Positions 24,206 to 63,990 of a stretch of 64,000 nt of DNA are shown one piece after another. The stretch comes from Escherichia phage vB-Eco-KMB39: sequence record OR539219.1. One strand, 5' to 3'. Position numbers and translations under genes: made by a program. Under the pieces are notes generated by a model. It ran no database searches and was not told where the DNA came from. It saw only the letters and a list, made by a program, of their open reading frames with translations. The first letter of the stretch is position 1. Every line of letters starts with the position of its first letter.

Positions 24206-24538
24206 TTATTTTACTACTTTCCAGTGCTGCATGTCAAGTTTGCCAACTTTTTTCATCTTCTCAATTAAGCGTTCGGCACGTTGGCGAGCTGTAACATAAT
24301 ACCATTCACCTAATTCATTTTGTTCAATTTTTCCAACGATTACTGTATTCAACTCATAAATCCAACCGGTAAAGAAATTATGAACTTGAATTGTAAAGGT
24401 GAAATCTGTTCCCATACCTTCTGTTGTTTCTACTTCAATAATATCACCTTCAACTGCCATTAAGAACCACATAGTTTCATCATATTTACCATTGAAGCAT
24501 TTAGTTTTAACTGTAGCGTTCAGATTAATCGTTTTCAT
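24206..24538 (-). CDS. Hypothetical protein (30.x series)
   Basis: 110 aa ORF preceded by early promoter. Confidence 0.55.
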   Translation of the reverse strand: MKTINLNATVKTKCFNGKYDETMWFLMAVEGDIIEVETTEGMGTDFTFTIQVHNFFTGWIYELNTVIVGKIEQNELGEWYYVTARQRAERLIEKMKKVGKLDMQHWKVVK

Positions 24539-24565
24539 TTTATTCTCCTTTGTTTGTGTAAGATA

Positions 24566-24594
24566 ATACTATCACAAAGGAACTATACTGTAAA
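24566..24594 (-). promoter_or_regulatory. Sigma70-type phage early promoter
   Basis: Minus strand: -35 TTTACA, 17 nt, -10 TAGTAT; about 28 nt upstream of ATG at 24538. Confidence 0.5.
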
Positions 24595-24623
24595 CAACTT
24601 TGTGCAATCTTTGGAAAATAAAA

Positions 24624-24646
24624 AAGGACTCCCGAAGGAGTCCTTA
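24624..24646 (-). terminator. Intrinsic terminator
   Basis: AAGGACTCC-CGAA-GGAGTCCTT; minus-strand hairpin followed by UUUUUAUUUU. Confidence 0.65.
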
Positions 24647-27427: not shown

Positions 27428-27457
27428 TTCAATTTCCTCATTTGTTTTGGTAGAGCT

Positions 27458-27486
27458 ATAATATCACAACTCTACCAAAAAGTAAA
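27458..27486 (-). promoter_or_regulatory. Sigma70-type phage early promoter
   Basis: Minus strand: -35 TTTACT, 17 nt, -10 TATTAT. Confidence 0.45.
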
Positions 27487-27489
27487 CTA

Positions 27490-30750: not shown

Positions 30751-30781
30751 TATAAAGTCCTCATGTTATGTCAGTAAGATT

Positions 30782-30810
30782 ATTATAACACAACACGAGG
30801 GACTTGTAAA
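30782..30810 (-). promoter_or_regulatory. Sigma70-type phage early promoter for alc
   Basis: Minus strand: -35 TTTACA, 17 nt, -10 TATAAT; shares leader sequence with the promoter at 15609. Confidence 0.6.
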
Positions 30811-30814
30811 CAGC

Positions 30815-33608: not shown

Positions 33609-34339
33609 TAATTTTTCCTCTTTAAAATTCTGCCGCGTTTCCAACCTGGCGGTATAATATCATCTTTACCTATAAGCGTGCATTCACTTCCATTATTAAT
33701 CCATTTCTTACCGCGGATTCCTTTATAATCTCTTGGTTGTATTTTGTCAAACTTTGCATCAAGTTGATATGCCCATCGAAATCCATAGGCATATTGAAAT
33801 TTACCCTCAGCACAATATTTGATATTTGACCCGTTTCCATTAACTGACCTGGACGCTGCGGCAATAGAGTGAAAGGTTTCTATGAAATCCCCATCTAATG
33901 AGAATTTATGTATTTCGATAGATGGGCATGCATACCTATTCACGTTTGATACATGTTGTTTAGTTTCGTTTTTATGATGCTTGCCTAACATTCCTCTAGG
34001 ATGAGGATTATTTTTCCAATATTTCTTAAAGAAATCAGAATTAGCTTTAGCAAATAATTTTCTGTGCAAGCTATACAATCTGTTATTAATTCTATTACCA
34101 GCTTTATCTGTTGCCATTAACGTTAACGCAGAGGCAAGACCAAAATGGCCTTCATTTATCTTGCATAGTAATAGATGCGCTATAAAATGTTCTCTAGCTG
34201 TTAATTCAACTAAATTTTCTTTATCATCAGAACCTCCCATGCATTTAGGGACTATATGATGTGTCTCTTTATACTCGGATAAATGTTCCCGAGCCTGAGC
34301 TCGGGAAATTAGGTCATTATAGATTTTTTGATAATTCAT
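33608..34339 (-). CDS. mobE: HNH homing endonuclease MobE
   Basis: 243 aa; HNH motif region ETHHIVPKCMGGSDDKENLVELTAREHFIAH; sits between nrdA and nrdB as T4 mobE; stop overlaps nrdB start (TAATG). Confidence 0.82.
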   Translation of the reverse strand: MNYQKIYNDLISRAQAREHLSEYKETHHIVPKCMGGSDDKENLVELTAREHFIAHLLLCKINEGHFGLASALTLMATDKAGNRINNRLYSLHRKLFAKANSDFFKKYWKNNPHPRGMLGKHHKNETKQHVSNVNRYACPSIEIHKFSLDGDFIETFHSIAAASRSVNGNGSNIKYCAEGKFQYAYGFRWAYQLDAKFDKIQPRDYKGIRGKKWINNGSECTLIGKDDIIPPGWKRGRILKRKN

Positions 34340-36603
34340 TACAATTTACACGCTGCACAATCGTCGGCTTTAGGAGTTTCTATTTCATAATCATCAGTAC
34401 CAGAACCATCACGGGTATTATGATAATAGAAATTTTTAATGCCATAATACCATCCGTATAACATGTCATCAATCATTATTGACATTGGAACCTTTCCTTT
34501 TGGAAAAATCTGCGGGTCATAGTATGTATTCGCTGAAGCTGATTGACATACCCATTTCAGCATAATAGCTACCTGCGTAAGATAAGGTTTATTACCTTTC
34601 TTAGCTAATTTCCACGTATAATCATATAGGTCTATGTTATGCTCAATATTGGGCACGACTTGATTAAAGGAGCCCTCTTTTGATTCTTTAACAGAGACTG
34701 GTCCACGTGGAGGCTCGATACCGTTTGTACTGTTAGAAACTTGGGAAGATGACTCACATGGCATAAGTGCTGATAATGTGCTATTACGGATGCCAAAGAG
34801 CTTAAGGTCTTCCCGCAGCGCCGACCAGTCACAAACGTATTTTGGAGATGCGATTTGGTCAATCTTTTTATTGTACCAGTCGATAGGTAATTCGCCTCGA
34901 GACCAACGAGTGTCTGAATAATATTCGCAAGGTCCTTTTTCTTTGGCGAGCTTAATGGATGCTTTAATGAGTCCATACTGTAATCTCTCAAATAGTTCAT
35001 GTGTTAAATCATTAGCATCTTCATAAGAAGCAAAGTTACTTGCCAGCCAAGCTGCATAGTTGGTAACACCTACGCCAAGATTTCGACGCTTTTTAGCTTT
35101 TTCTGCTTCAGGAACCGGATATCCTTGGTAATCCAAAAGATTATCAAGAGCACGAACTTGAACTTCTGCCAATTCATTAATTTTATCTTGGTCTTGCCAG
35201 TCAAAATTATCTAATACGAATGCAGAGAGAGTACACAATCCAATTTCAGCATCAGGACTATTCACATCATTTGTTGGAATAGCAATTTCACAGCACAAGT
35301 TACTCTGACGAATAGGTGCCTTTTCACGAATAAACGGAGTATAGTTATTCGTATTATCAATGAACTGCACATAAATCCTTGCTGTTCCTGAGCGTTCAGT
35401 CATGAGTAATTCAAATAGTTCACGGGCTTTAATACGCTTTTTACGAATATTAGGGTCTTTTTCTGCGGCTTCGTACAATTCACGGAAACGGTCTTGGTCT
35501 TTAAAATAAGAATAATAAAGCTCGCCACCCATTTCATGCGGACTGAACAAAGTAATGTAGTCGTTCTTTCCAAAACGTTCCATCATCAAATCATTCAGCT
35601 GGACGCCATAATCCATATGACGGATACGGTTTTCTTCTACACCCTTGTTATTTTTTAGAACGAGAAGATTTTCAACTTCCAAATGCCAAATAGGATAATA
35701 AGCAGTAGCAGCGCCGCCACGAATTCCACCCTGTGAGCATGATTTAACAGCAGTCTGAAAATGTTTCCAAAAAGGAATAACACCAGTATGGCGTACTTCA
35801 CCCATGCCAATCTTAGAACCTTCGGCACGAATCATACCAACGTTAATACCAATTCCAGCACGTTTGGAGATATATTCAACAATTGAAGTGGAAGCCTTAT
35901 TGATAGACTTTAATGAATCACCTGCCTCAATAACAACACATGAACTAAACTGTCGAGTCGGAGTACGGCAACCAGCCATAATAGGAGTTGGTAATGAAAT
36001 CTGTCGAGTAGATACTGCTTCATAAAAATGAATAACATGTTTTAATCTATCAATAGGTTCATCTTGATGCAATGCCATTCCAATAGTCATAAATGCAAAC
36101 TGAGGAGTTTCATAAATTTGACCAGTGGTTTTATCTTTAACTAGATATTTTTCTTTTAATTGCATCGCCCCGGAATAAGTAAATTCCATATCCCGCTCGT
36201 GCTTAATTTTTGATTCTAAAAATGTAATTTCTTCTGCTGAATATTTTGACAATAATTCAGGGTCATATTTACCTTCATTTACACAGTAAGAAATATGGTC
36301 AATAAATGAACGTGGTTCATACTGCCCATAAACATGCTTACGAAGAGCAAACATTAAACAACGTGCAGCTACATATTGATAATCAGGCTCTTCAACTGAA
36401 ATAGAATTCGCAGCAGCCTTAATTACAATGGTTTGAATGTCATCAGTGGTCATTCCATCACGGAGATATGATTTAATATTTTCATATAATTCATAAGGAT
36501 CTACAGATGTTCCTTCAGCTGCCCAAGATAAAACTTTAATAATTTTTTGCGGGTCAAAGCTTTGAGAAACACCACTACTTTTGATAACATTAATTAATTG
36601 CAT
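34339..36603 (-). CDS. nrdA: Ribonucleotide reductase large subunit
   Basis: 754 aa; ATP-cone N-terminus, class I RNR catalytic region; same length as T4 NrdA. Confidence 0.93.
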   Translation of the reverse strand: MQLINVIKSSGVSQSFDPQKIIKVLSWAAEGTSVDPYELYENIKSYLRDGMTTDDIQTIVIKAAANSISVEEPDYQYVAARCLMFALRKHVYGQYEPRSFIDHISYCVNEGKYDPELLSKYSAEEITFLESKIKHERDMEFTYSGAMQLKEKYLVKDKTTGQIYETPQFAFMTIGMALHQDEPIDRLKHVIHFYEAVSTRQISLPTPIMAGCRTPTRQFSSCVVIEAGDSLKSINKASTSIVEYISKRAGIGINVGMIRAEGSKIGMGEVRHTGVIPFWKHFQTAVKSCSQGGIRGGAATAYYPIWHLEVENLLVLKNNKGVEENRIRHMDYGVQLNDLMMERFGKNDYITLFSPHEMGGELYYSYFKDQDRFRELYEAAEKDPNIRKKRIKARELFELLMTERSGTARIYVQFIDNTNNYTPFIREKAPIRQSNLCCEIAIPTNDVNSPDAEIGLCTLSAFVLDNFDWQDQDKINELAEVQVRALDNLLDYQGYPVPEAEKAKKRRNLGVGVTNYAAWLASNFASYEDANDLTHELFERLQYGLIKASIKLAKEKGPCEYYSDTRWSRGELPIDWYNKKIDQIASPKYVCDWSALREDLKLFGIRNSTLSALMPCESSSQVSNSTNGIEPPRGPVSVKESKEGSFNQVVPNIEHNIDLYDYTWKLAKKGNKPYLTQVAIMLKWVCQSASANTYYDPQIFPKGKVPMSIMIDDMLYGWYYGIKNFYYHNTRDGSGTDDYEIETPKADDCAACKL

Positions 36604-37160: not shown

Positions 37161-37472
37161 TTACACCGCCATTTTTCCTTTAATAGGAGGGTGTGATTCG
37201 TAACCTTTAAGAACGAAATCTTTAGGCCTGAGTTTAAGAACATATTTTAATTGTTCTTTAGTAGAAAGATGACGGAATTTATAAGGCAATCCGCCTATTA
37301 CCAGTTCACAAAGCTCTTTAGGTTCACGACGTAAAATTTCTTTACATTGTTCAACGTGATTCATATAGATATGAGTATTACCGCCAGAAAATATCAAATC
37401 TCCAGGAATAAGATTACACATCTTAGCTACAATATGAATTAACGCAGCATATGATGCAATATTAAACGGTAG
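37161..37472 (-). CDS. td: Thymidylate synthase, exon 2
   Basis: Exon 2 encodes LPFNIASYAALIHIVAKMCNLIPGDLIFSGGNTHIYMNH...; joins exon 1 in frame after the intron. Confidence 0.9.
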   Translation of the reverse strand, partial: LPFNIASYAALIHIVAKMCNLIPGDLIFSGGNTHIYMNHVEQCKEILRREPKELCELVIGGLPYKFRHLSTKEQLKYVLKLRPKDFVLKGYESHPPIKGKMAV

Positions 37473-38488
37473 CATTATGTTCAGATAAGGTCGTTAATCT
37501 TACCCCGGAATTATATCCAGCTGCATGTCACCATGCAGAGCAGACTATATCTCCAACTTGTTAAAGCAAGTTGTCTATCGTTTCGAGTCACTTGACCCTA
37601 CTCCCAAAAGGGATAGTCGTTAGGCATTTATGTAGAACCAATTCCATTTATCAGATTTTACACGATAAGTAACTAATCCAGACGAAATTTTAAAATGTCT
37701 AGCTGCATCTGCTGCACAATCAAAAATAACCCCATCACATGAAATCTTTTTAATATTACTAGGCTTTTTACCTTTCATCTTTTCTGATATTTTAGATTTA
37801 GTTATGTCTGAATGCTTATGATTAAAGAATGAATTATTTTCACCTGAACGATTTCTGCATTTACTACAAGTATAAGCAGAAGTTTGTATGCGAACACCGC
37901 ACTTACAAAACTTATGGGTTTCTGGATTCCAACGTCCGTTTTTACTTCCGGGTTTACTGTAAAGAGCTTTCCGACCATCAGATCCAAGTTTAAGCATCTT
38001 AGCTTTAACAGTTTCAGAACGTTTCTTAATAATTTCTTCTTTTAATGGATGCGTAGAACATGTATCACCAAACGTTGCATCAGCAATATTGTATCCATTA
38101 ATTTTAGAATTAAGCTCTTTAATCCAAAAATTTTCTCGTTCAATAATCAAATCTTTCTCATATGGAATTTCTTCCAAAATAGAACATTCAAACACATTAC
38201 CATGTTTGTTAAAAGACCTCTGAAGTTTTATAGAAGAATGGCATCCTTTTTCTAAATCTTTAAAATGCCTCTTCCATCTCTTTTCAAAATCTTTAGCACT
38301 TCCTACATATACTTTATTGTTTAAAGTATTTTTAATCTGATAAATTCCGCTTTTCATAAATACCTCTTTAAATATAGAAGTATTTATTAAAGGGCAGTCC
38401 TACAATTTAGCACGGGATTGTCTACTAGAGAGGTTCCCCGTTTAGATAGATTACAAGTATAAGTCACCTTATACTCAGGCCTCAATTA
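37473..38488 (-). ncRNA. Self-splicing group I intron of td (1016 nt) carrying the I-TevI ORF
   Basis: 5' end UAAUUGAGGCCUGAGUAUAAGGUGACUUAUACUUGUAAUCUAUCUAAACGGGGAACCUCUCUAGUAGACAAUCCCGUGCUAAAUUGUAGGACU and 3' end ...GACCUUAUCUGAACAUAAUG match the recalled T4 td intron; exon 1 ends in U, intron ends in G. Confidence 0.9.
37620..38357 (-). CDS. I-TevI: Intron-encoded GIY-YIG homing endonuclease I-TevI
   Basis: 245 aa; MKSGIYQIKNTLNNKVYVGSAKDFEKRWKRH... matches recalled I-TevI; lies inside the td intron. Confidence 0.93.
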   Translation of the reverse strand: MKSGIYQIKNTLNNKVYVGSAKDFEKRWKRHFKDLEKGCHSSIKLQRSFNKHGNVFECSILEEIPYEKDLIIERENFWIKELNSKINGYNIADATFGDTCSTHPLKEEIIKKRSETVKAKMLKLGSDGRKALYSKPGSKNGRWNPETHKFCKCGVRIQTSAYTCSKCRNRSGENNSFFNHKHSDITKSKISEKMKGKKPSNIKKISCDGVIFDCAADAARHFKISSGLVTYRVKSDKWNWFYINA

Positions 38489-39037
38489 ACCCAAGAAAAC
38501 ATCTACTGATCGTTGATACCACTGCAAATCCAAATAGCCATTACGCACATTAAACTGATAGAACATATGACAAGGCGGTAATGCCATTTGCTTGAGTTCA
38601 GCTGGATTCCATGCTGAAACAACTTGACGTCTATCATTTGGCAGTTTTTTAATACGATCAATAACTTCTACAATTTGGTCTACACCGCCAAAATCACGCC
38701 ATTGTTTTCCATAAATTGGACCAAGTTCACCGCTATGGTATCCTAAATCTTTTGCTTGATTTTCGTAATTTTCATCCCAGACTGTTTTGCCTTGAATTAA
38801 TGAATCATGCTGAATTAATCGTAAATCATTTACGTTAGTACTTCCTGACAAAAACCATATTAGCTCAGCAATACAAGCTTTCCAGGCGAGCTTCTTAGTC
38901 GTTACTGCAGGAAAACCTTTAGTTAAATCCCAGCGTAATTTAGTACCGAACAAAGCAATTGTTCCTGTGCCTGTTCGGTCATCGGTTTCATAGCCATTTT
39001 CAAAAATGTCTTTAATTAAATCTTGGTATTGTTTCAT
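38489..39037 (-). CDS. td: Thymidylate synthase, exon 1
   Basis: 183 aa; MKQYQDLIKDIFENGYETDDRTGTGTIALFG...; active-site region ALPPCH; in-frame stop lies just inside the intron. Confidence 0.92.
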
Positions 39038-40537: not shown

Positions 40538-40562
40538 TTTATTCTCCTTAGTTGATAGGGTA

Positions 40563-40591
40563 ATAGTATCACACTACTACCCTACTGTAAA
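40563..40591 (-). promoter_or_regulatory. Sigma70-type phage early promoter (conserved cassette)
   Basis: Minus strand: -35 GTTTACA, 17 nt, -10 TACTAT, then leader with GGAG and ATG at 40537. Confidence 0.6.
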
Positions 40592-40972
40592 CTACTTTTT
40601 GAAAGTTTTTCGCAAAAGTTCAATGATTTCATCTACATTGTTTTCGTCTACAATGCAGTGAATTTTTGTTACGCCAGAAATCTTGTCTTCGACTTCATCT
40701 TCTTCAGAAGTCGGTTCTTTATACTCACGAAAACAATGAAATTCGTCTTCACAAATTTCTAAAAGTCTATCTTTGAGGTAAAAATGCTTTCCATTTGCGC
40801 ATTCAATGTGTTTTACTGCTTTATATCCATTAGCGACAGAAACTTCTTTAACTTCAAACCATCCGCCATTATCTCGAATAGCTTTAACTATTGATGAATT
40901 AGAACGTGGGCTATAATTAATAAATGTATCAATAAGTCTTGGAACAAGTTCATACTTTCTACCAGTATACAT
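40592..40972 (-). CDS. Hypothetical protein (frd.x series)
   Basis: 126 aa ORF. Confidence 0.6.
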   Translation of the reverse strand: MYTGRKYELVPRLIDTFINYSPRSNSSIVKAIRDNGGWFEVKEVSVANGYKAVKHIECANGKHFYLKDRLLEICEDEFHCFREYKEPTSEEDEVEDKISGVTKIHCIVDENNVDEIIELLRKTFKK

Positions 40973-41247: not shown

Positions 41248-41291
41248 ATTATTTTCCTCTTTTAATCATCAGCAGTATTGCCGATAGTTGT

Positions 41292-41320
41292 ATAGTACCA
41301 TGGAATGACAAGAATGTAAA
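41292..41320 (-). promoter_or_regulatory. Sigma70-type phage early promoter (conserved cassette)
   Basis: Minus strand: -35 TTTACA, 17 nt, -10 TACTAT; A/T-rich UP-like tract upstream. Confidence 0.6.
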
Positions 41321-41351
41321 CTGTTTTGTGAAAAAATTTTAAAATAAAAAA

Positions 41352-41370
41352 GGGGACCTCTAGGGTCCCC
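41352..41370 (-). terminator. Gene 32 intrinsic terminator
   Basis: GGGGACC-TCTA-GGGTCCCC; minus-strand hairpin followed by UUUUUAUUUU about 25 nt after the gene 32 stop. Confidence 0.7.
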
Positions 41371-42298: not shown

Positions 42299-42370
42299 TT
42301 TATTTCCTTTTTAATTTAATTTAATTAACAGTTGGTGCTATGACACTTTACCTCATAGCTGGCATAATTC
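42299..42370 (-). promoter_or_regulatory. Gene 32 autoregulatory translational operator (pseudoknot plus unstructured A/U-rich tract)
   Basis: mRNA leader ...AUGAGGUAAAGUGUCAUAGCACCAACUGUUAAUUAAAUUAAAUUAAAAAGGAAAUAAA-AUG matches the recalled T4 gene 32 operator; overlaps 3' end of segG. Confidence 0.7.
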
Positions 42371-42985
42371 GCAATACTCTGGGTCTTCGAGAGGTATCCA
42401 ACCTGAGTTGAAATACTTTACCATCGATTTAGCAGTTGTATCAGTTATATTTATATTACCTTTAACTCTTCGCCATCCAGGAGTTTTACCGTACAGATTA
42501 GAGGATAATAATAACACATAATTCTCGTAAGCAATATGAGATAATTTCCAAGACTCTATATTAGCTCGTGATGTTTTCCAAGGTCTAAAATCGTCACGGT
42601 TCATATAATTAGCCAATCTCATATGCTCTCTAACTTCCGGGTCTTTAGCTGGATGAGTTTCACCACTCACACCAAATCCACCACCAGCATATACCAGATT
42701 AAAATAGTCTGGATTATCTCTGGCATTTACTTCAAGTTGGTATTTTCGTTCTGCTTCAATAACATCCAAGTCATCATCAATTTGAATTATTTTAACGCTC
42801 GGTTTTTGAAGCATTACCGCATTCAAAAATCTTTTTTGTTTACATGAGCTCCAGTATTCCTTTCCGGAAGAGTCATATATTATTCCGTTCTCAAATGAGC
42901 AATTTAATTTACTACCGATATAGTAGTATGGCGGAGTCTTATTTTTGACACGGTCTTCAAATGTAAACCAATATACTATATTCAT
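42353..42985 (-). CDS. segG: GIY-YIG homing endonuclease SegG
   Basis: 210 aa; N-terminal GIY-YIG-like motif (IVYWFTFEDRVKNKTPPYYYIGSK); located between genes 32 and 59 as T4 segG. Confidence 0.7.
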   Translation of the reverse strand: MNIVYWFTFEDRVKNKTPPYYYIGSKLNCSFENGIIYDSSGKEYWSSCKQKRFLNAVMLQKPSVKIIQIDDDLDVIEAERKYQLEVNARDNPDYFNLVYAGGGFGVSGETHPAKDPEVREHMRLANYMNRDDFRPWKTSRANIESWKLSHIAYENYVLLLSSNLYGKTPGWRRVKGNINITDTTAKSMVKYFNSGWIPLEDPEYCELCQL

Positions 42986-42986
42986 A

Positions 42987-44230: not shown

Positions 44231-45148
44231 TCAAAATTCATTAATGCTGTTAGTTAATTTAGAAAGACCCGCTTTTACAAAATATGAATAAATTTTGCCA
44301 CGCGGTGGTAATTTATATGAATTATAGTAATTCACAATGTTTGAAGCAATATTATCAGGAATATAATCAAAATCAATTAGAACTAAATTTTCTTTATAAC
44401 GATTATATTCAGATTCTGTGAGAAGCACCTTAGCTTGCTCACGGTCATTAGCAATAGCTTCAACGATTGAAGTTTTCATTGAAGGAGTTCGTTCACCTTC
44501 AACTCTGGTAAACCAAAAGTCAGATCGTACTTTAACTGAAGCAACGTTATCCTTTTTGTCGCCTTTAAGGATTTTAGTCATACAGTCAATTTCAGCAGAA
44601 CCGCTTTTAATTTTAACCCATTTCTTATGCATCGGTGACCATTGCTTAACATTTGGGTATTTGTGAAGCTGTGTAAAGTCACCATCCGACGAAATGATTA
44701 AAATTTTATGTCCTTCTAAAGAGAACTTTTTAACAAGAACAGCAATGTGGTCATCTGCTTCATACTTATCAATATCCATAACAATGTATGGCATATAAGC
44801 TTTCAATTCATCTATAACTTTATGGCTGGATTCAAAATAACCTTCCCAGTCCCAAGTAGATTCTTCTCGTGCTTTTCCGCGGTTTTTCTTGTAATAGTAA
44901 GCAAAATCACGACGCCAATATCCAGATTTCGCATTATCAATACACAGTACAATTTTAGTGTATCCAAGCGTTTTTGCTTTTTTGACATTAAACTTAATTG
45001 AGTTCAATATCAAATGACGAACCATTGATAAATTAATTTTTTCTTTATCTGGGAAGTTTACCAAAGCAGTTGAAAGCGCAATTTGACTAAAGTCAATAAA
45101 GCAAATTCCTTCTTTGTAATCTTCATCCAACATCATTTCTAAATCCAT
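44231..45148 (-). CDS. rnh: RNase H (5'-3' exonuclease / flap endonuclease)
   Basis: 305 aa from ATG at 45148 (MDLEMMLDEDYKEG...); FEN-family acidic residues. Confidence 0.9.
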   Translation of the reverse strand: MDLEMMLDEDYKEGICFIDFSQIALSTALVNFPDKEKINLSMVRHLILNSIKFNVKKAKTLGYTKIVLCIDNAKSGYWRRDFAYYYKKNRGKAREESTWDWEGYFESSHKVIDELKAYMPYIVMDIDKYEADDHIAVLVKKFSLEGHKILIISSDGDFTQLHKYPNVKQWSPMHKKWVKIKSGSAEIDCMTKILKGDKKDNVASVKVRSDFWFTRVEGERTPSMKTSIVEAIANDREQAKVLLTESEYNRYKENLVLIDFDYIPDNIASNIVNYYNSYKLPPRGKIYSYFVKAGLSKLTNSINEF

Positions 45149-45210
45149 ATGAACCTCGTTCAATTAGTGAGATTTATATTATATACCATCCAAATCTTAA
45201 AGTAAACAAG

Positions 45211-48200: not shown

Positions 48201-49122
48201 TTCTACTGTATTTGAAGTTGGTGATGAAACGTCTAATCATTTTTATTCTCAGCGCAATAAAGCCGGAAATATAACATTTAATATCAACGGTACAGTAACA
48301 CCGATAAATGTTAATGCTTCAGGAACATTGAATGCAAATGGCGTAGCAACATTTGGTAATTCAGTCACTGCAACTGGTGAAATTATTTCTCGAAGCGCAA
48401 ATGCTTTCCGTGCTATTAGCGGAAATTATGGTTTCATTGTTCGCAATGACGGGTCAGTAACGAATTTTATGCTTACTGCATCGGGTGATCAGACTGGCGG
48501 ATTTAATGGATTGCGTCCTTTAGCTATCAATAATGCATCTGGTCAAGTAACGATTGGCGAAAGCTTAATCATTGCCAAAGGTGCTACTATAAATTCAGGC
48601 GGTTTGACTGTTAACTCGAGAATTCGTTCTCAGGGTACTAAAACATCTGATTTATATACCCGCGCACCAACAACTGATACTGTAGGATTCTGGTCAATTG
48701 ATATTAACGATTCAGCCACTTATAATCAGTTCCCGGGTTATTTTAAAATGGTTGAAAAAACTAATGAAGTGACTGGACTTCCATACTTAGAACGTGGTGA
48801 AGAGGTTAAATCTCCTGGTACATTGACTCAGTTTGGTAACACACTTGATTCGCTTTACCAAGATTGGATTACTTATCCAACAACACCAGAAGCGCGTACC
48901 ACTCGTTGGACACGCACATGGCAGAAAACCAAAAACTCTTGGTCAAGTTTTGTTCAGGTATTTGACGGAGGTAACCCTCCTCAACCGTCTGATATTGGTG
49001 CTTTACCATCTGATAATGCTATAATGGGTAATCTTACTATTCGTGATTTCTTACGAATTGGTAATGTTCGCATTGTTCCTGACCCAGTGAATAAAACGGT
49101 TAAATTTGAATGGGTTGAATAA
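45253..49122 (+). CDS. 34: Long tail fibre proximal subunit gp34
   Basis: 1289 aa (same as T4 gp34); MAEIKRKFRAEDGLDAGGDKIINVALADR...; internal beta-repeat motifs. Confidence 0.93.
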   Translation: MAEIKRKFRAEDGLDAGGDKIINVALADRAVGTDGVNVDYLIQENTVQQYDPTRGYLKDFVIIYDNRFWAAINDIPKPAGAFNSVRWRALRTDANWTTVSSGPYQLKSGESISVDTAAGNDITFTLPSSPIDGDTIVLQDIGGKPGVNQVLITAPVQSIVNFRGQQVRSVLMTHPKSQIVLIFSNRLWQMYVADYSREAVVVTPASLYQAQSNDFIVRRFTSASAINIKLPRFANHGDIINFVDLDKLNPLYHTIVTTYDETTSVQEVGTHSIEGRTSIDGFLMFDDNEKLWRLFDGDSKARLRIITTNSNIRPNEEVMVFGANNGTTQTIELQLPTDISVGDTVKISMNYMRKGQTVKIKAAGEDKIASSVQLLQFPKRSEYPPEAEWVTVQELVFNGETNYVPVLQLAYIEDSDGKYWVVQQNVPTVERVDSLNDSTRARLGVIALATQAQANADLENSPQKELAITPETLANRTATETRRGIARIATTAQVNQDTTFSFADDLIITPKKLNERTATETRRGVAEIATQQETNAGTDDTTIITPKKLQARQGSESLSGIVTFVSTAGATPASSRELNGTNVYNKNTNNLVVSPKALDQYKATPTQQGAVILAVESEVIAGQSQEGWANAVVTPETLHKKTSTDGRIGLIEIATQSEVNTGTDYTRAVTPKTLNDRRATESLSGIAEIATQVEFDAGVDDTRISTPLKIKTRFNSTDRTSVVALSGLVESGTLWDHYTLDILEANETQRGTLRVATQVEAAAGTLDNVLITPKKLLGTKSTEAQEGVIKVATQSETVAGTSANTAVSPKNLKWIVQSEPTWAATTTVRGFVKTSSGSITFVGNDTVGSTQPLESYEKNGYAVSPYELNRVLANYLPLKAKAVDSNLLDGLDSSQFIRRDIAQTVNGSLTLTQQTNLSAPLVSSSTATFGGSVSANSVLTISNTGTETHLIFEKGPQTGTNQAQTVTIRVWGNQFSGESDTTRSTVFEVGDETSNHFYSQRNKAGNITFNINGTVTPINVNASGTLNANGVATFGNSVTATGEIISRSANAFRAISGNYGFIVRNDGSVTNFMLTASGDQTGGFNGLRPLAINNASGQVTIGESLIIAKGATINSGGLTVNSRIRSQGTKTSDLYTRAPTTDTVGFWSIDINDSATYNQFPGYFKMVEKTNEVTGLPYLERGEEVKSPGTLTQFGNTLDSLYQDWITYPTTPEARTTRWTRTWQKTKNSWSSFVQVFDGGNPPQPSDIGALPSDNAIMGNLTIRDFLRIGNVRIVPDPVNKTVKFEWVE
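46660..46870 (+). repeat. Near-identical direct repeats within gene 34 (tail-fibre repeat units)
   Basis: ACTGCTACAGAAACTCGTAGAGGT(A/G)TCGCA recurs about 120 bp apart, encoding ERTATETRRG(I/V)A(R/E)IAT; further degenerate copies downstream. Confidence 0.7.
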
Positions 49123-50308: not shown

Positions 50309-50965
50309 ATGGCTGATTTAAAAGTAGGTTCAACAACCGGAGGCTCTGTCATTTGGCATCAAGGAAATTTTCCATTGAATCCAGCCGGTGACGATGTACT
50401 CTATAAATCATTTAAAATATATTCAGAATATAATAAACCACAAGCTGCTGATAACGATTTCGTTTCTAAAGCTAATGGCGGTACTTATTTAAATAAAGTA
50501 ATTTTTAATAAAGGAATGACTGTTCCTGGCGCAGGGTCAGGTGATAATGGTATTTTTGCTGGTCCTGGTGATAGTGCCACGTATGATACTACAAATATGG
50601 ATATTGTTTCATGGTATGGTATTGGTTTTAAATCATCACAAGGAACAGCAGGTAGAACTGTAGTAATTAACACACGAAATGGAGATATTAGCTCAAAGGG
50701 CGTAATTGAAGCATCACAAATCCGTGTAACTTCGTTATCACCAGTAAATAATTATGACCTTACGCGGAAAGATTATGTTGATGGAGCAATAAATATTGTT
50801 ACAGCAAACGCAAACTCTAGGGTATTACGCTCTGGAGACACTATGACAGGAAATTTAACTGCGCCAAACCTTTTTTCACAGAATCCTGCATCTCAACCCT
50901 CGCATGTTCCACGATTTGACCAAATTGTTATTAAGGATTCTGTTCAAGATTTCGGCTATTATTAA
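50309..50965 (+). CDS. 36: Long tail fibre distal connector gp36
   Basis: 218 aa; size and synteny as T4 gp36. Confidence 0.88.
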   Translation: MADLKVGSTTGGSVIWHQGNFPLNPAGDDVLYKSFKIYSEYNKPQAADNDFVSKANGGTYLNKVIFNKGMTVPGAGSGDNGIFAGPGDSATYDTTNMDIVSWYGIGFKSSQGTAGRTVVINTRNGDISSKGVIEASQIRVTSLSPVNNYDLTRKDYVDGAINIVTANANSRVLRSGDTMTGNLTAPNLFSQNPASQPSHVPRFDQIVIKDSVQDFGYY

Positions 50966-50973
50966 GAGGACTT

Positions 50974-53900
50974 ATGGCTACTTTAAAACAAATACAATTT
51001 AAAAGAAGCAAAACTGCAGGAGCACGTCCTGCCGCTTCAGTATTAGCCGAAGGTGAATTGGCTATAAACTTAAAAGACCGTGTACTTTTTACTAAAGATG
51101 ACCAAGGAAATATTATTGATCTGGGTTTTGCTAAAGGCGGTAGTATTGACGGGAATGTTATTCATACAGGCAATTATAACCAAACTGGCGATTATACTTT
51201 AAATGGCGTCTTCACTCAGACTGGTAATTTTAATTTAACTGGTATTGCTCGAGTAACTCGCGATATTATTGCCGCTGGGCAGATTATGACTGAAGGCGGA
51301 GAACTTATTACAAAAAGTTCAGGTACAGCGCATGTTCGTTTTTTCGATAACAATAGTCGCGAACGCGGAATCATTTATGCCCCGGCTAATGATGGTTTAA
51401 CTACACAAGTACTTAATATCAGGGTTCAAGACTACGCCGCTGGTAGCGAAAGCACTTATGCATTTTCAGGCAGTGGACTATTTACTTCACCTGAAGTATC
51501 AGCATGGAAATCTATTTCGTCTCCACAAATTCTGACCAACAAAGTCATTACTAATAATAAATCTACGGGTGATTATGACATCTATTCGATGGCAGACAAT
51601 GTTCCATTGTCTGAAAGCACTACTGCTATTAATCATCTTCGTGTCATGCGTAATGCCGTTGGTTCTGGTATTTTCCATGAAGTTAAAGATAATGATGGAA
51701 TAACTTGGTATGCAGGTGATGGACTTGACACCTATCTTTGGTCATTTACTTGGAGCGGCGGAATTAAATCAAGTCACTCAATTTCTATTGGTTTAACACC
51801 TGGTAATAAAGATTATTCAATATTAGGACCATCTAGTATTGCTTTAGGAGATAATGATACTGGATTTAAATGGCATCAAGATGGATATTATTTTAGCGTT
51901 AATAATGGAACAAAAACGTTTTTATTTAGTCCTAGCGAAACAACTAGCCTAAGAAAATTTGTAGCTGGATATTCTACTAACGGAACCGATTTAACTACTC
52001 CTCCAACTGAAAATTATGCTCTTGCTACTGTCGTGACATACCACGATAATAACGCGTTTGGAGATGGTCAGACTCTTTTAGGATATTATCAAGGCGGTAA
52101 CTATCATCACTATTTCCGCGGCAAGGGTACTACAAACATTAATACTCACGGCGGTTTGTTAGTTACTCCTGGTAATATTGACGTTATTGGTGGTTCTGTT
52201 AATATCGATGGTAGAAATAATGCTTCTACACTGATGTTTAGAGGTAACACAACTGGTAGCAGTTCAGTTGATAATATGACAATTTCCGTGTGGGGTAATA
52301 CCTTTACTAATCCTAGCGAAGGCACCCGTAAAAATGTCATGGAAATTTCTGACGCAACTAGTTGGATGAGCTATATTCAACGAACAACTGCAGGTAAAGT
52401 CGAATCGGTTATAAATGGCACCCAGATTGTTAATGAAAACTTGACAGTAGTAAAAAATGCTACATTTGACGGTACAATCAGCGCAGCCGGTGAAATCGCG
52501 ACAAATGCTGTAAATGGTCTTCGCATTTGGAACGCAGATTATGGAGCTATTTTTAGACGTTCAGAAGGAAGTCTTCATATTATTCCAACTGCTTACGGTG
52601 AAGGTAAATATGGCGATATCGGTCCACTTCGCCCGTTTAGTATGGCTTTAGATACTGGTAAAGTTACTATTCCAGATTTACAATCAAGTTACAATACGTT
52701 CGCTGCTAACGGTTATATTAAATTTGTTGGTCATGGAGCGGGTGCCGGCGGTTATGACATTCAATATGCTCAAGCGGCTCCTATTTTCCAGGAAATTGAT
52801 GATGATGCTGTAAGCAAATATTATCCTATTGTTAAACAGAAGTTTTTAAATGGTAAAGCCGTTTGGTCTTTAGGTACTGAAATTAATTCGGGTACATTCG
52901 TTATTCATCATCTGAAAGAAGATGGTTCACAAGGCCATACGTCTCGTTTTAATCAAGACGGTACTGTTAACTTCCCAGATAACGTTTCTGTCGGCGGCGG
53001 TGAAGCTACTATTGCTCGTAATGGTAACATCTGGTCTGATATCTGGAAAACGTTTACTTCAGCAGGCGACGTAACTAATATTCACGATGCTATTGCTACT
53101 CGCGTTGCCAAAGAAGGCGACACGATGACCGGCACTCTTTGGATTAATAAAGATGCTGCTGGAATAGTTCTTAATCCTCCTTTGACCAGTGATTCATCAT
53201 TTATTCGTTCTGATACGGCCGGGGCCAATAATTGGTATATTGGTAAAGGCGGTGCCGACAATGGTCTAGGTTTTTACAGTTACATTACACAAGGCGGTGT
53301 ATACATAACAAATAACGGTGAAATATCGCTTTCTCCTCAAGGACAAGGAACATTTAATTTTAATAGAGACCGCCTTTATATAAATGCTAGTCAATGGGTT
53401 GCACATAAATCTGGCGCTTGGGGCGACCAATGGGGCTTAGAAGCTCCTGTATTTGTGGATTTTGGTAGCGTTGGTAATGATAGTTATTATCCTATTATCA
53501 AAGGAAAATCTGGTATTACTAACGAAGGATACGTATCCGGTGTAGATTTTGGTATGCGCCGCATCACTAATACATGGGCCCAAGGTATTATTCGTGTAGG
53601 TAACCAGGAAAATGGCTCCGACCCGCAAGCTATCTATGAATTCCACTCTAATGGTACTTTTTATGCTCCGAGCTTACTTAAGAGCAACAGAGTATCGGCT
53701 GGTGGTGGAGACCCTGTATGGACTGGACCATGTATTGTTATCGGCGATAACGACACCGGATTGGTATGGGAAGCAGACGGTATTTTCAACGCATATGCAA
53801 ACGGTCAAGGTGTGTTTAGTTTCCGCGCTGGTCTTGCTCAGACATTTGGCAACGTGTCCCTTAACGTTAACGCCGGTATGTACGTTCGTGATAACATTGA

Positions 53901-54243
53901 TGTTAACGACGTTTATATTCGTTCTGATATTCGTTGTAAGTCAGAAATTAAGCTTATTAAGAACGCTCAAGAGAAATCTAAACTCTTAGGTGGTTATACT
54001 TATCTGCTTAAAAACTCTGTCACAGACGAAGTTAAACCGTCTGCAGGTTTAATTGCTCAGGAAGTTCAAGAAGTATTGCCTGAACTTGTTTCTGAAGATA
54101 AAGAGACCGGCTTACTTCGTTTAAACTATAACGGTATTATCGGTTTAAATACTGCTACTATCAACGAGCATACTGACGAAATCAAGGAATTGAAATCTGA
54201 AATTGCTGAATTGAAAGCATTAATTAAATCATTGATAAAATAA
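50974..54243 (+). CDS. 37: Long tail fibre distal subunit gp37 with C-terminal intramolecular-chaperone-like domain
   Basis: 1089 aa; conserved N-terminus MATLKQIQFKRSKTAGARPAAS...; C-terminal ~106 aa begins SDIRCKSEIK... and ends in coiled coil. Confidence 0.9.
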   Translation: MATLKQIQFKRSKTAGARPAASVLAEGELAINLKDRVLFTKDDQGNIIDLGFAKGGSIDGNVIHTGNYNQTGDYTLNGVFTQTGNFNLTGIARVTRDIIAAGQIMTEGGELITKSSGTAHVRFFDNNSRERGIIYAPANDGLTTQVLNIRVQDYAAGSESTYAFSGSGLFTSPEVSAWKSISSPQILTNKVITNNKSTGDYDIYSMADNVPLSESTTAINHLRVMRNAVGSGIFHEVKDNDGITWYAGDGLDTYLWSFTWSGGIKSSHSISIGLTPGNKDYSILGPSSIALGDNDTGFKWHQDGYYFSVNNGTKTFLFSPSETTSLRKFVAGYSTNGTDLTTPPTENYALATVVTYHDNNAFGDGQTLLGYYQGGNYHHYFRGKGTTNINTHGGLLVTPGNIDVIGGSVNIDGRNNASTLMFRGNTTGSSSVDNMTISVWGNTFTNPSEGTRKNVMEISDATSWMSYIQRTTAGKVESVINGTQIVNENLTVVKNATFDGTISAAGEIATNAVNGLRIWNADYGAIFRRSEGSLHIIPTAYGEGKYGDIGPLRPFSMALDTGKVTIPDLQSSYNTFAANGYIKFVGHGAGAGGYDIQYAQAAPIFQEIDDDAVSKYYPIVKQKFLNGKAVWSLGTEINSGTFVIHHLKEDGSQGHTSRFNQDGTVNFPDNVSVGGGEATIARNGNIWSDIWKTFTSAGDVTNIHDAIATRVAKEGDTMTGTLWINKDAAGIVLNPPLTSDSSFIRSDTAGANNWYIGKGGADNGLGFYSYITQGGVYITNNGEISLSPQGQGTFNFNRDRLYINASQWVAHKSGAWGDQWGLEAPVFVDFGSVGNDSYYPIIKGKSGITNEGYVSGVDFGMRRITNTWAQGIIRVGNQENGSDPQAIYEFHSNGTFYAPSLLKSNRVSAGGGDPVWTGPCIVIGDNDTGLVWEADGIFNAYANGQGVFSFRAGLAQTFGNVSLNVNAGMYVRDNIDVNDVYIRSDIRCKSEIKLIKNAQEKSKLLGGYTYLLKNSVTDEVKPSAGLIAQEVQEVLPELVSEDKETGLLRLNYNGIIGLNTATINEHTDEIKELKSEIAELKALIKSLIK

Positions 54244-54246
54244 TAA

Positions 54247-55056
<810 letters not shown>

Positions 55057-56028: not shown

Positions 56029-56181
56029 TCAATTAGTTGACTTTGTTATAATATCATCAGACGCTTGATTTGTAAACTGGTCTGTGTTATTTTCTTCAAA
56101 AATTTTTTCTACGAATTCCTTGAACGACTCACGTTCCTGAGCTACATTGTGCTCGATTACCTTTTCAAGATTATGACTCAT
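56029..56181 (-). CDS. Small acidic protein between arn and asiA, below ORF-track cutoff
   Basis: Hand-translated 50 aa ORF MSHNLEKVIEHNVAQERESFKEFVEKIFEENNTDQFTNQASDDIITKSTN; ATGA overlap with arn stop. Confidence 0.45.
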   Translation of the reverse strand: MSHNLEKVIEHNVAQERESFKEFVEKIFEENNTDQFTNQASDDIITKSTN

Positions 56182-57835: not shown

Positions 57836-58471
57836 TCACAGTTCAGATGCTACAGTGATTACTGCTTCAATGTTTTCTGCCGAACGTTTAATGTCAAGAT
57901 ACACATTACCGTTTTTAGCGATTTTACAAGACATTCCGATATCGGTAAATTTCTGAATATGATGTTCCATCATTTTGTATCCAAAAATTCGCATGTTTCC
58001 ATTATTGTTAATTTCAAAATTGCGAATTCCGTGAGTGCGTTTTTCTAAAATAGCAAGATAGTTACTGCGGTAAGTTTCAACCTTTTTAAGAACAAATCCA
58101 TTTTCATCTAAAAGTTTTAACATGAGGTCTTTATCTTCTTCCATATCGGAAGTAATCTCACGAGCTTTACGAGTTGCTCGTTTTTTCAGTAGTTCCGGAG
58201 CATTTTCCTGCGCGTATAAAGTTGCTGCATTTGAAATAATATCCTGAGCTTCACCAGTAATGATTAATCCATCACCAGATTTCTCTACCAGGCCTTTTTT
58301 AATCAATACACCAATATTACTATTAACTACTGCGTTACCTAAATCTGGATGCACCTCACGAACTTCTGCAGCTGTAATAAAATCTTTCTTAGCAATGGTA
58401 ATTAAAATCGCAGCAGTTTTTTCATTCAGAACATCGTTAGAAGCTTTGATGATGTAAGTTACTTTAGACAT
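57836..58471 (-). CDS. motA: MotA middle-transcription activator
   Basis: 211 aa; MSKVTYIIKASNDVLNEKTAAILITIAKKDFITAAEVREV... matches recalled T4 MotA. Confidence 0.93.
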   Translation of the reverse strand: MSKVTYIIKASNDVLNEKTAAILITIAKKDFITAAEVREVHPDLGNAVVNSNIGVLIKKGLVEKSGDGLIITGEAQDIISNAATLYAQENAPELLKKRATRKAREITSDMEEDKDLMLKLLDENGFVLKKVETYRSNYLAILEKRTHGIRNFEINNNGNMRIFGYKMMEHHIQKFTDIGMSCKIAKNGNVYLDIKRSAENIEAVITVASEL

Positions 58472-58512
58472 TTTCTAATCTCCGTAATTCTGTATCAGTA
58501 GTTGATAGTTGT

Positions 58513-58541
58513 ATAGTACCACAGTATGCTTTGGTTGTAAA
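58513..58541 (-). promoter_or_regulatory. Sigma70-type phage early promoter for motA (conserved cassette)
   Basis: Minus strand: -35 TTTACA, 17 nt, -10 TACTAT; A/T-rich upstream tract. Confidence 0.65.
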
Positions 58542-58574
58542 CCGTTTTGTGAAAAAAATTTTTGAAATAAAAAA

Positions 58575-58594
58575 GGGAGAGCCGAGGCTCTCCC
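58575..58594 (-). terminator. Intrinsic terminator
   Basis: GGGAGAGCC-GAG-GCTCTCCC; minus-strand hairpin followed by UUUUUU. Confidence 0.65.
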
Positions 58595-58600
58595 TAAAAA

Positions 58601-61627: not shown

Positions 61628-61655
61628 TTTCTGTTCCTCCGTAGTTGATAGGGTA

Positions 61656-61684
61656 ATAGTACCACGGAAGAACAGTCTTGTAAA
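61656..61684 (-). promoter_or_regulatory. Sigma70-type phage early promoter (conserved cassette)
   Basis: Minus strand: -35 TTTACA, 17 nt, -10 TACTAT, followed by GGAGG and ATG at 61627. Confidence 0.6.
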
Positions 61685-61691
61685 CAACTTT

Positions 61692-61790: not shown

Positions 61791-61873
61791 AATAACCTCA
61801 TCACAAAAGTAAATGTTAAACAAATTAATGGAATACTAATTAACCAAACGAAACACCACCATAATGAACTCAT
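61787..61873 (-). CDS. Small hydrophobic peptide (ndd.x series), below ORF-track cutoff
   Basis: Hand-translated 28 aa MSSLWWCFVWLISIPLICLTFTFVMRLL; ATGA overlap. Confidence 0.35.
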   Translation of the reverse strand: MSSLWWCFVWLISIPLICLTFTFVMRLL

Positions 61874-62133
61874 AGCTCAATCTCAGCGATTTTCATTTCA
61901 TTACTATTAATAGCCGCTTTAAGACTATCTGAAAGAATTACATTCCAGTGGTCATTCATATGACCATTAACTAAGCGTGTAATTTCTTCGGGAGTTGAAA
62001 AATAAGGCGTATCAGACTCCCAATGCGATAATCCTAAGCGAGTATAAATCATACCTTCATCATCGCTAGAATATTCAACTGACACAAACTCATCAGTTAT
62101 TTTATGTTTAGCGTAATAAAATTTAAATTTCAT
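61870..62133 (-). CDS. Hypothetical protein (ndd.x series)
   Basis: Probable start MKFKFYYAKHKITDEFVSVEYSSDDEGMIYTRL... (87 aa) after early promoter and GGAGG; ORF-track N-terminus reads through the promoter. Confidence 0.55.
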   Translation of the reverse strand: MKFKFYYAKHKITDEFVSVEYSSDDEGMIYTRLGLSHWESDTPYFSTPEEITRLVNGHMNDHWNVILSDSLKAAINSNEMKIAEIEL

Positions 62134-62161
62134 TTTCCGCTCCTCCGTAGTTGATAGTTGT

Positions 62162-62190
62162 ATAGTACCACGGTCCTTGTGGTATGTAAA
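62162..62190 (-). promoter_or_regulatory. Sigma70-type phage early promoter (conserved cassette)
   Basis: Minus strand: -35 TTTACA, 17 nt, -10 TACTAT; near-identical to the promoters at 58513, 41292 and 61656. Confidence 0.65.
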
Positions 62191-62207
62191 CCGTTTTGTG
62201 AAAATTT

Positions 62208-62765: not shown

Positions 62766-62810
62766 TTAAACTTTCCTTTATGTCGGAATCATAATTTCTC
62801 TTAAAACAAA

Positions 62811-62826
62811 AGGGCCGAAGCCCTTA
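62811..62826 (-). terminator. Intrinsic terminator (UUCG-loop hairpin)
   Basis: AAGGGCCGAAGCCCTT; minus-strand hairpin followed by UUUGUUUU. Confidence 0.55.
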
Positions 62827-62828
62827 TT

Positions 62829-63023
62829 TTATTTGAATTGTGCGATTCTTTTCTCTAGACACTCAGCATAAGATTTCATTGAGATGAACTGCGAAAGTAG
62901 CAGTTCTTGCTCAACTGCGTTAACTGTTAGAAACTTTGCGCTTTCTAAAAATTTACTCAGTGCATTAATTTTGAGCATTAATTGATCGTATTCTTCTTTT
63001 ACTCGTGCTTGATAACCTAACAT
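62829..63023 (-). CDS. Hypothetical protein (position of T4 denB.1)
   Basis: 64 aa ORF with RBS AAGGAAA. Confidence 0.55.
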   Translation of the reverse strand: MLGYQARVKEEYDQLMLKINALSKFLESAKFLTVNAVEQELLLSQFISMKSYAECLEKRIAQFK

Positions 63024-63037
63024 AATTTTCCTTAGTT

Positions 63038-63053
63038 AAGGGCCGAAGCCCTT
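63038..63053 (-). other. RNA hairpin overlapping rIIB stop codon
   Basis: AAGGGCCGAAGCCCTT, identical to the hairpin at 62811; no T-run. Confidence 0.45.
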
Positions 63054-63990
63054 ATTTAAATTGTTCAGTAACGTCTTCAACTACTTCGTATTGGCAGGTA
63101 CGCATTTTAGCATCGTTGTAATCAATCGGAATTGATACTACATCACGCGGATGTACTTTAACTTTTACAACTCGGCTAGTTGAACTGCCAAAGTGACGAA
63201 TATAAGATTTAGAACACACATGCAGACCACGAGAACAAGTTTGTGTATCATCGTCATTCACACGAGTACGCGGCATTTTAACTACTTTACCAGGACTGTT
63301 ATCAAAGGTGTTTGAGTGACAGTCAAAGTAGTTGTCACGAACTACTTTCCAAGCATAGAAGTAACCATCTTCTGTAATTTCAATATCGTTTGCTACCAAG
63401 AAATCAAAGAGTCGAGATACCGCTTTCTGGCTTGGGTTTTCCAGCAGATTTTCCAAGAACGGAAAATAAAATTCAAAGTTTTCACCTTTTTCCATCGAAT
63501 CGAGAATACGATCAACTAAACCAGACCGTAATTCGATATTTTGATAGAACAAGCTTCCGCCTTCAATTCGAACATCGCCGGAAATATATTTTTCAACAGC
63601 GCGACGAACATTAATTTTTTGTGCCGCTTCTTCTAACTTATCTGCTACGAGCAGATTAAGAATTTCCTGGAAGTTTGAATGAGTATTAGGAGTTGCGTTA
63701 TAAGTTACACCGTCAACAGTAATCGAAATGAATTTTTTAGATGCATTCCAAATAATGTCAGATTTAGCAACTGGAGCAATAACTGCATCGCTATTAACTT
63801 TAACTGTAATATCACCGCTAATAGTAACTTTAGAGCGTTTAGCTTCTTCAGCATTTTTCAAAACACGACGAATTGTGTCAACCGATACACCTTGCCAATC
63901 AGCCAATTCCTGTTGGGTGTAATTACCACTTGAATACAGTTTAACAATTTCAGCTTGTTCGTTTTTGGTCAGGCATTTAATATTGTACAT
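63052..63990 (-). CDS. rIIB: rIIB rapid-lysis / membrane-associated protein
   Basis: 312 aa; MYNIKCLTKNEQAEIVKLYSSGNYTQQELADWQGVSVDTIRRVLKNAEE... matches recalled T4 rIIB. Confidence 0.92.
   Translation of the reverse strand: MYNIKCLTKNEQAEIVKLYSSGNYTQQELADWQGVSVDTIRRVLKNAEEAKRSKVTISGDITVKVNSDAVIAPVAKSDIIWNASKKFISITVDGVTYNATPNTHSNFQEILNLLVADKLEEAAQKINVRRAVEKYISGDVRIEGGSLFYQNIELRSGLVDRILDSMEKGENFEFYFPFLENLLENPSQKAVSRLFDFLVANDIEITEDGYFYAWKVVRDNYFDCHSNTFDNSPGKVVKMPRTRVNDDDTQTCSRGLHVCSKSYIRHFGSSTSRVVKVKVHPRDVVSIPIDYNDAKMRTCQYEVVEDVTEQFK

Follow-up and report, generated by a model that had tools for sequence, protein, structure and literature searches.

The repeat family dispersed along the minus strand of Escherichia phage vB-Eco-KMB39 (OR539219.1) most probably consists of early (Pe) promoters read by the host sigma-70 polymerase, in cassettes that double as patches of homology for recombination; we put the probability of this reading at roughly 0.94. 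We analysed a single stretch of 64,000 nt of this genome, here called the window. Strong early promoters of this kind are well known from T4-like phages, and recognising them here is a correct but ordinary finding.

The window derives from a Tequatrovirus. Aligned to T4, it is collinear with positions 108,463-168,769 at 88-98% identity, about 96-98% taken as a whole. The region upstream of motA matches 672 T4-like records. The 2-kb surroundings of the motA promoter are 97.5-98.3% identical to the best-matching Tequatrovirus (T4-like coliphage) records, and at least 80% of this query is covered by 479 records; motA, topoisomerase gene 52 and small ORFs lie under the match. The relatives RB3, T6, T2, fPS-90, fFiEco06, DalCa and a48 were compared over the homologous ~50 kb. 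The tail-fibre region (50487-55000) is strongly diverged from T4: gp38 (260 aa) is an adhesin of the T2 type, gp37 (1089 aa) departs from its T4 counterpart over ~3 kb, and the region is a host-range module unrelated to the early promoters. Selfish elements also vary among the relatives (window 42362-42986, 37472-38491, 32932-32935 and 33609-34343). The window has segG and the td intron with I-TevI and lacks the nrdB intron, T4 and RB3 having 600-1093 extra nt at the same position; the mobE region is variable among relatives.

An earlier note on this DNA had listed five core copies of the motif and four more divergent ones (15609, 24566, 27458 and 30782), and all nine proved real. Searching for GTTGATAGKKGTAWAGTACCAC with up to three mismatches gave five plus-strand matches, at 40551, 41280, 58501, 61644 and 62150, and none in 100 shuffles; the intervals listed for the core copies (58513-58541 and its equivalents) span exactly the -10 hexamer to the -35 hexamer. 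The strict pattern GTTTAC-N15-TGN-TANNNT occurs ten times on the minus strand of the whole window and never on the plus strand. With a mean of 0.045 in 200 first-order Markov simulations, this is ~200-fold above expectation and on one strand only. A leave-one-out search with a position weight matrix (PWM), as the earlier note had proposed, placed every copy in the top 10 of ~128,000 positions on both strands, at 9.6-50.6 bits, and the best site outside the family reached at most 5.8 bits. The earlier list lacked three sites: the asiA copy (G at 56077), the gene 30.7 copy, which has its G at 24203 and a spacer of 16 nt, and, before rnh, a weaker candidate (45207). The description of the copies as near-identical holds for two blocks, with 76% identity outside the spacer, and fails for the spacer itself, which at 33% is at chance level; overall, the five core copies are 67% identical over 66 nt.

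The motA locus carries the following features, numbered, as throughout, with the G of GTTTAC as -36.

58506 to 58542, minus strand: motA early promoter core, with G(-36) at 58542, -35 TTTACA at 58536-58541, a 17-nt spacer, TGn (TGG) at 58519-58521, -10 TACTAT at 58513-58518 and the predicted +1 A at 58506.
58543 to 58573, minus strand: UP-like A/T-rich tract of the motA promoter, 83% A+T.
58574 to 58595, minus strand: intrinsic terminator of motA.1, AGGGAGAGCC-UCGG-GGCUCUCCCU plus a T-run, -20.3 kcal/mol, z = -4.95.
58472 to 58505, minus strand: motA 5' leader, 35 nt including the +1 A at 58506, with a Shine-Dalgarno GGAG at 58480-58483.
57836 to 58471, minus strand: motA CDS (211 aa), driven by the motA promoter.

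The ortholog of this promoter is annotated as a "predicted early promoter" in the fPS-90 record. At about -58 to -47, AAAAATTTTTT matches the distal UP subsite AWWWWWTTTTT with 0 mismatches. The leader sequence GGAGATTAGAA agrees with 10 of the 11 positions of GGAGRAYARAA, the RegB cleavage consensus (PMC3014915). Judged by its sequence, the motA.1 terminator joined to the motA promoter is a terminator-promoter composite of the PeSL (promoter-early stem-loop) type.

The other copies and their neighbouring hairpin in the window are as follows.

62155 to 62191, minus strand: early promoter after denB, driving an 87-aa ORF (62133-61870); "predicted early promoter" in fPS-90.
61649 to 61685, minus strand: early promoter before the ndd.4 homolog (ATG at 61627); subfamily with TACTATTACCCTATCAAC; T4 ortholog with G at 166807.
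56041 to 56077, minus strand: asiA early promoter, wholly within the asiA.1 CDS; TTTACA, 17 nt, TGA, TATTAT; T4 ortholog with G at 161211.
45171 to 45207, minus strand: weaker candidate before rnh; TTTACT, 17 nt, TATAAT, without TGn; low PWM score.
41285 to 41321, minus strand: frd.3 early promoter, just 3' of gene 32; annotated in fPS-90.
41352 to 41370, minus strand: terminator hairpin directly upstream of the frd.3 promoter, GGGGACC-CUAGA-GGUCCCC plus a T-run.
40556 to 40592, minus strand: frd.1 early promoter; perfect RegB site GGAGAATAAAA in the leader; 71-nt indel relative to T4 at the 3' edge.
30775 to 30811, minus strand: alc early promoter; -10 TATAAT; promoter and leader 91% identical over 54 nt to the alt.-3 copy.
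27451 to 27487, minus strand: cd.2 early promoter; ortholog of T4 Pe133295.
24559 to 24595, minus strand: gene 30.8 early promoter; perfect RegB site in the leader; upstream terminator hairpin at 24624-24645.
24168 to 24203, minus strand: gene 30.7 early promoter; 16-nt spacer; an 8-bp stem, GGTACAGG/CCTGTACC, encloses the -10; annotated in fPS-90.
15602 to 15638, minus strand: alt.-3 early promoter; the second full-length alt paralog, a difference of 1.69 kb from T4, stops 18 nt upstream of the promoter's G.

The promoters share one anatomy. GTTTAC stands at -36 to -31 in all ten strict copies and in the gene 30.7 copy. TTTAC(A/T) occupies -35 to -30 and is followed by a spacer of 17 nt in ten copies and 16 nt in one, the last three bases of which form an extended -10 TGn in 11 of 11. 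The -10 element, TAnnnT at -12 to -7, is TACTAT in six copies; the rest have TATTAT, TATAAT, TAGTAT or TATAGT. TACTAT matches only four of the six consensus positions, for which the TGn compensates. The predicted start is T(-1)A(+1) in 9 of 11 copies. All copies lie on the minus strand, and the genes behind them are motA, asiA, alc, frd.1, frd.3, cd.2, 30.7, 30.8, alt.-3, ndd.4 and the 87-aa ORF.

The 23 nt upstream of this core are 61-87% A+T, several copies being only modestly above the genome background of 64%, and the distal UP pattern occurs with at most two mismatches in only four of the 11, perfectly at motA. Stem-loops are found at four of the 11 copies (upstream of motA, frd.3 and 30.8, and over the -10 of 30.7) and are absent at the other seven. 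The 30.7 hairpin (window 24150-24215, minus strand) folds at -20.1 kcal/mol (z = -5.0) with the -10 in its loop, and may attenuate read-through from the 30.8 promoter. Its variants in RB3 and a48 keep the stem through G-T/G-U wobble pairs. The leaders measure 19-38 nt and many contain a GGAG Shine-Dalgarno; three of them (frd.1, 30.8 and 30.7) carry GGAGAATAAAA, a perfect match to the RegB consensus. Rfam, run over the whole window at the gathering threshold, returned zero hits, the td intron likewise going undetected, so that no known RNA family accounts for the promoter leaders.

Several loci show further peculiarities. The fPS-90 record places a predicted early promoter at the position orthologous to the rnh candidate. 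A T2 record labelled "escape mutant" has a 2-nt deletion in the asiA -10 region (ATTATAAC to ATTAAC), which lowers the PWM score from 30 to 13 bits. The 87-aa ORF (61870-62133, minus strand) is without a T4 counterpart, and its homologs in fPS-90, fFiEco06, DalCa, T6 and a48 are annotated as hypothetical. The window also encodes a second full-length alt-like ADP-ribosyltransferase (15657-17348). This gene is shared with RB3, T2, T6, DalCa, a48 and fFiEco06, and T4 and fPS-90 retain the paralog only as the fragments alt.-1 and alt.-2.

The same ten sites are found in T4, with the G at 167086, 166807, 163673, 161211, 146875, 146143, 136336, 133331, 130310 and 123093, and the window copies are 96-100% identical to them. 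Over 160 kb of T4 the strict pattern has 29 matches, 29 of them on the minus strand. The T4 RefSeq record names an "early promoter Pe133295 between cd.2 and cd.3", and this position is an A exactly 7 nt after the -10 of T4 site 133331, the ortholog of window copy 27487. For one copy, this agrees with the start 6-8 nt past the -10 that the earlier note had predicted. In the record of Yersinia phage fPS-90, the upper ends of the features labelled "predicted early promoter" coincide with the G of 8 of the 11 PWM-detected sites. Across nine phages, PWM matches of at least 12 bits number 8-13 per stretch, all on the early strand and zero on the other, and orthologs occur at every locus save two that are lacking in T2.

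The copies resemble the T4 Pe promoters in GTTTAC, the 17-nt spacer, TGn, TAnnnT, an upstream tract that is A/T-rich to a varying degree, a start 7 nt past the -10, the strand and the ten places; the motA copy is fully identical in core and leader (T4 163637-163673). Nothing essential differs: there are spacer alleles (frd.3, alt.-3) and single-base changes in the A/T tract. Behind two copies the first gene is not that of T4, the 87-aa ORF standing in for ndd.6, and frd.1 following directly rather than after a short extra stretch. T4 early promoters have GTTTAC at -36 to -31 (PMC1524935) and have been described as "UP/-35/TGn/-10" promoters with extra consensus regions that out-compete host promoters; some are stimulated by Alt ADP-ribosylation of alpha Arg265 (PMC2988021). 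Like rrnB P1, T7 A1 and lambda PL, they make several simultaneous contacts (UP, -35, extended -10, -10) with which they out-compete host promoters (PMC2988021). The strong UP-element promoters of E. coli and other phages have a -35 TTGACA, whereas the T4 type has GTTTAC. Our literature search found no paper on genome-wide 5' end mapping of T4. The classical lists of T4 early promoters are reportedly those of Wilkens & Rueger and of Miller et al. 2003. Taken together, the layout, spacing, strand, position before an ATG, T4 orthology, fPS-90 annotation and published consensus support the earlier proposal of sigma-70 early promoters, as does the detection of motA and asiA RNA in T4 at 1 min (PMC9697503).

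Anatomy, strand bias, T4 orthology and conservation pattern can all be observed directly in the genomes. Conservation was quantified as the mean pairwise difference per site over nine phages and ten loci, figures that carry some ascertainment bias because the sites were located by PWM. The difference is 0.000 at the G, the -35 hexamer and the TGn, 0.040 in the -10 hexamer, 0.056 at -6 to -1, 0.094 at +1 to +10 and 0.116 at the 14 variable spacer positions. The invariant positions coincide with the polymerase contact positions.

Comparison with the relatives also displays rearrangements directly, and the suggestion that the repeats mediate recombination or gene shuffling has gained support: promoter and leader repeats bound cassette indels, identical spacers recur at non-orthologous loci, and the published PeSL model agrees. 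Since their -35 and -10/start blocks are exactly common to copies, the cassettes are patches of homology. In the window the shared exact blocks measure 18-25 bp, and in T4 they reach 58 bp; the denB-side and motA promoters, for example, have exact blocks of 20 nt and 25 nt in common.

At the motA locus, fFiEco06 and DalCa have an insert of ~344 nt between motA.1 and motA in which a 75-aa ORF is accompanied by a second early promoter, this one with a spacer of 16 nt. A 23-nt direct repeat, CTATCAAATAAATGAACTGAAAC, from -2 to +21, flanks the insert. In a48 there is a single CTATCAAATAAATGAACTGAAAC and no 75-aa ORF, which is the empty or excised form. The ORF (44340-44567 in fFiEco06, matching window site 58499-58521) is absent from the window, T4, T2, T6, RB3 and fPS-90. 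Of the 142 phage records in which it occurs, 125 have it at no less than 99% identity, a uniformity that suggests recent spread.

Gene 30.8 and the 30.7 promoter are both missing from T2, and the junction falls within the GGAGAATAAAA common to the 30.8 and 30.7 leaders. The denB-side promoter drives the 87-aa ORF in the window, fPS-90, fFiEco06 and DalCa, and also in T6 and a48 behind a different leader; in T4 the gene behind it is ndd.6, and in RB3 and T2 it is a different ORF again. The first gene likewise varies behind the frd.1 and cd.2 promoters, with breakpoints at +6 to +27 from the start site. T4, T6, fFiEco06, DalCa and a48 have 71 extra nt between the frd.1 promoter and frd.1 (window 40542-40551), a stretch with its own Shine-Dalgarno and ATG (ATGTTCGCACC...) that carries no annotation in T4. 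The frd.1 promoter adjoins frd.1 directly in the window, RB3 and T2.

Promoter modules also appear at more than one locus, even spacers, which are otherwise unconstrained. In T4 the spacer AGCATAAAGCTTTA is found at frd.3 and nrdC.10, within an exact match of 58 nt, and in a48 and fFiEco06 it is found at the motA locus. T4 copies 55384 and 146875 have 58 exact nt in common. T4 copy 27080 is a mosaic: its spacer is that of 166807, its -10/start block that of 163673 and its leader that of 167086. Most of the 406 T4 pairs agree at 2-7 of the 14 spacer positions, and six outlier pairs agree at 11-14. The alc and alt.-3 promoters are 53/54 identical in T4 and 91% in the window, with three informative sites, a comparison that is suggestive of gene conversion. 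We grouped the indels into ~23 distinct events, ~7-8 of which have one of their edges inside a promoter cassette. With promoters at ~15% of the gene junctions on the early strand, chance alone would bring ~28% of events into contact with one, and an enrichment of indel edges at promoter cassettes over other gene junctions was not demonstrated.

PeSL mini-circles have been shown experimentally in RB49 and phi1 by Arbiol et al. 2010 (PMC2839356). The PST/T4 PeSL consensus is TTTACW-N17-TAYWAT (Comeau et al. 2014, PMC4122927), and one example in that study, which sets ndd.4/.5 of T4 beside ORF268/269 of PST, comes from the neighbourhood that corresponds to window 61.6-62.2 kb. Our copies share with PeSL elements this consensus, a tract upstream that is A/T-rich to a varying degree, the Shine-Dalgarno and ATG downstream and the variable small ORFs adjacent. 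They differ in that a terminator hairpin stands immediately upstream at motA, frd.3 and 30.8 only; the 30.7 hairpin lies over the -10, and the remaining copies adjoin coding sequence, without a PeSL-type stem-loop.

These data raise the possibility that the copies persist mainly as mobile or recombination linkers of the PeSL kind, their similarity reflecting descent and gene conversion rather than promoter selection on each copy. The mosaic modules of T4 (copy 27080 and the 58-nt match), the subfamilies that agree at non-functional positions, such as ACAACTATCAAC versus TACCCTATCAAC, the promoter-flanked cassettes inserted or deleted among relatives and the experimental mini-circles of RB49 and phi1 (PMC2839356) all fit this idea, which does not conflict with promoter function and is in part correct. 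As the main explanation of why the copies persist, we consider it possible but rather doubtful: the positions invariant across phages are exactly the sigma-70 contacts, while the spacers drift, all copies are oriented and spaced correctly before genes that are early in T4, and the adjacent stem-loop that defines PeSL occurs in only 3 of 10 copies.

The cassettes also recall those of integrons, an analogy drawn by Arbiol et al. (PMC2839356), in that small ORFs are gained and lost at repeats that secure their expression. Unlike integron cassettes, exchange of promoter cassettes appears to rest on short homology. To our knowledge, early-promoter cassettes have no dedicated recombinase or attC-like folded site. 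More speculatively, an active, directed or transcription-linked exchange would shuffle the upstream, spacer, start and leader modules among loci, and also among co-infecting phages, in an integron-like form of gene capture. Recombination might be primed at early-promoter R-loops, or an unknown factor might act on the conserved -10/start block ACAACTATCAAC; we regard such a process as improbable. The shut-off of early promoters, for which there is as yet no explanation, could also act on this extra-conserved block.

A second family of repeats scattered over the window consists of small G+C-rich hairpins, AAGGGGCC-GAAG-CCCC / AAGGGCC-GAAG-CCCTT with a T-run, which are terminator-like on both strands (149-191, 23735-23789, 62797-62851 and 63025-63062). 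A 242-nt indel relative to T6, fFiEco06, DalCa and a48 (62779-62787) adjoins one of them. The family recalls the GGGC/GCCC motifs that have been linked to T4 deletions (PMC2839356).

That the copies are instead middle promoters dependent on MotA and AsiA is very unlikely. They do have a good -10 with TGn, as do about half of the T4 middle promoters (PMC2988021), but the motif region carries GTTTACA where middle promoters have a MotA box: the -30 region reads TTTACA and not (a/t)(a/t)(a/t)TGCTTtA (consensus in PMC1524935). Moreover, one copy drives motA itself, which is needed before MotA exists, and motA and asiA RNA was detected at 1 min by dual RNA-seq of T4 (PMC9697503). We reject the middle-promoter assignment on the absence of a MotA box centred at -30.

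Chance sigma-70-like matches in an A/T-rich genome would explain why a generic TTGACA/TATAAT scan of the window is not enriched (38 matches against 35.7 expected at the shuffled level), which indicates that the signal resides in the extended T4-specific pattern; they are a negligible explanation for the family itself and are refuted by the one-stranded, ~200-fold excess of the strict pattern, the PWM separation and the conservation at orthologous places in nine phages. Equally negligible are attachment sites or the ends of an integrated mobile element: the T6 record (NC_054907.1) has a misc_feature "attR" at 48290-48329 that corresponds to the -10/start/leader of the denB-side promoter, yet the phage is strictly lytic, the stretches examined showed no integrase, and the 29 copies of T4 all point the same way, each in front of a gene. 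Labels of the attR type are typically the output of prophage-finding software working from direct repeats, and in a strictly lytic phage the T6 label is almost certainly such a repeat-finding artefact.

Under the early-promoter reading, we infer polymerase contacts, timing, strength and RegB cleavage from the T4 literature. Right after DNA entry, unmodified E. coli sigma-70 RNA polymerase would bind each cassette through four contacts: the alpha C-terminal domains with the A/T-rich tract upstream of -38, sigma region 4 with GTTTAC(A) at -36 to -31, sigma region 3 with TGn at -15 to -13, and sigma region 2 with TAnnnT at -12 to -7. Transcription would start at the A 7 nt past the -10 and proceed leftward on the minus strand through motA, asiA, alc, frd.1, frd.3 and several small ORFs. 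The upstream terminators may insulate three of these units (motA, frd.3 and 30.8). MotA and AsiA, made from early promoters, would later redirect the polymerase, and cutting of the GGAG leaders by the RegB nuclease would end early expression. The patches of homology, as the comparison with relatives shows, have served as crossover points at which phage recombination added, removed and traded small genes and moved promoter modules from one locus to another.

Nothing in the promoter family alters current understanding. The practical gain is the annotation of eleven early transcription units with predicted start sites, and the places likeliest to vary between relatives are now marked in the window. 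Early promoters would be the means by which the host RNA polymerase is seized within the first minute, and they would set when motA and asiA, the switch to middle transcription, are expressed. Modular, repeated promoters help explain how T4-like phages turn over small accessory genes without upsetting the expression of their neighbours.
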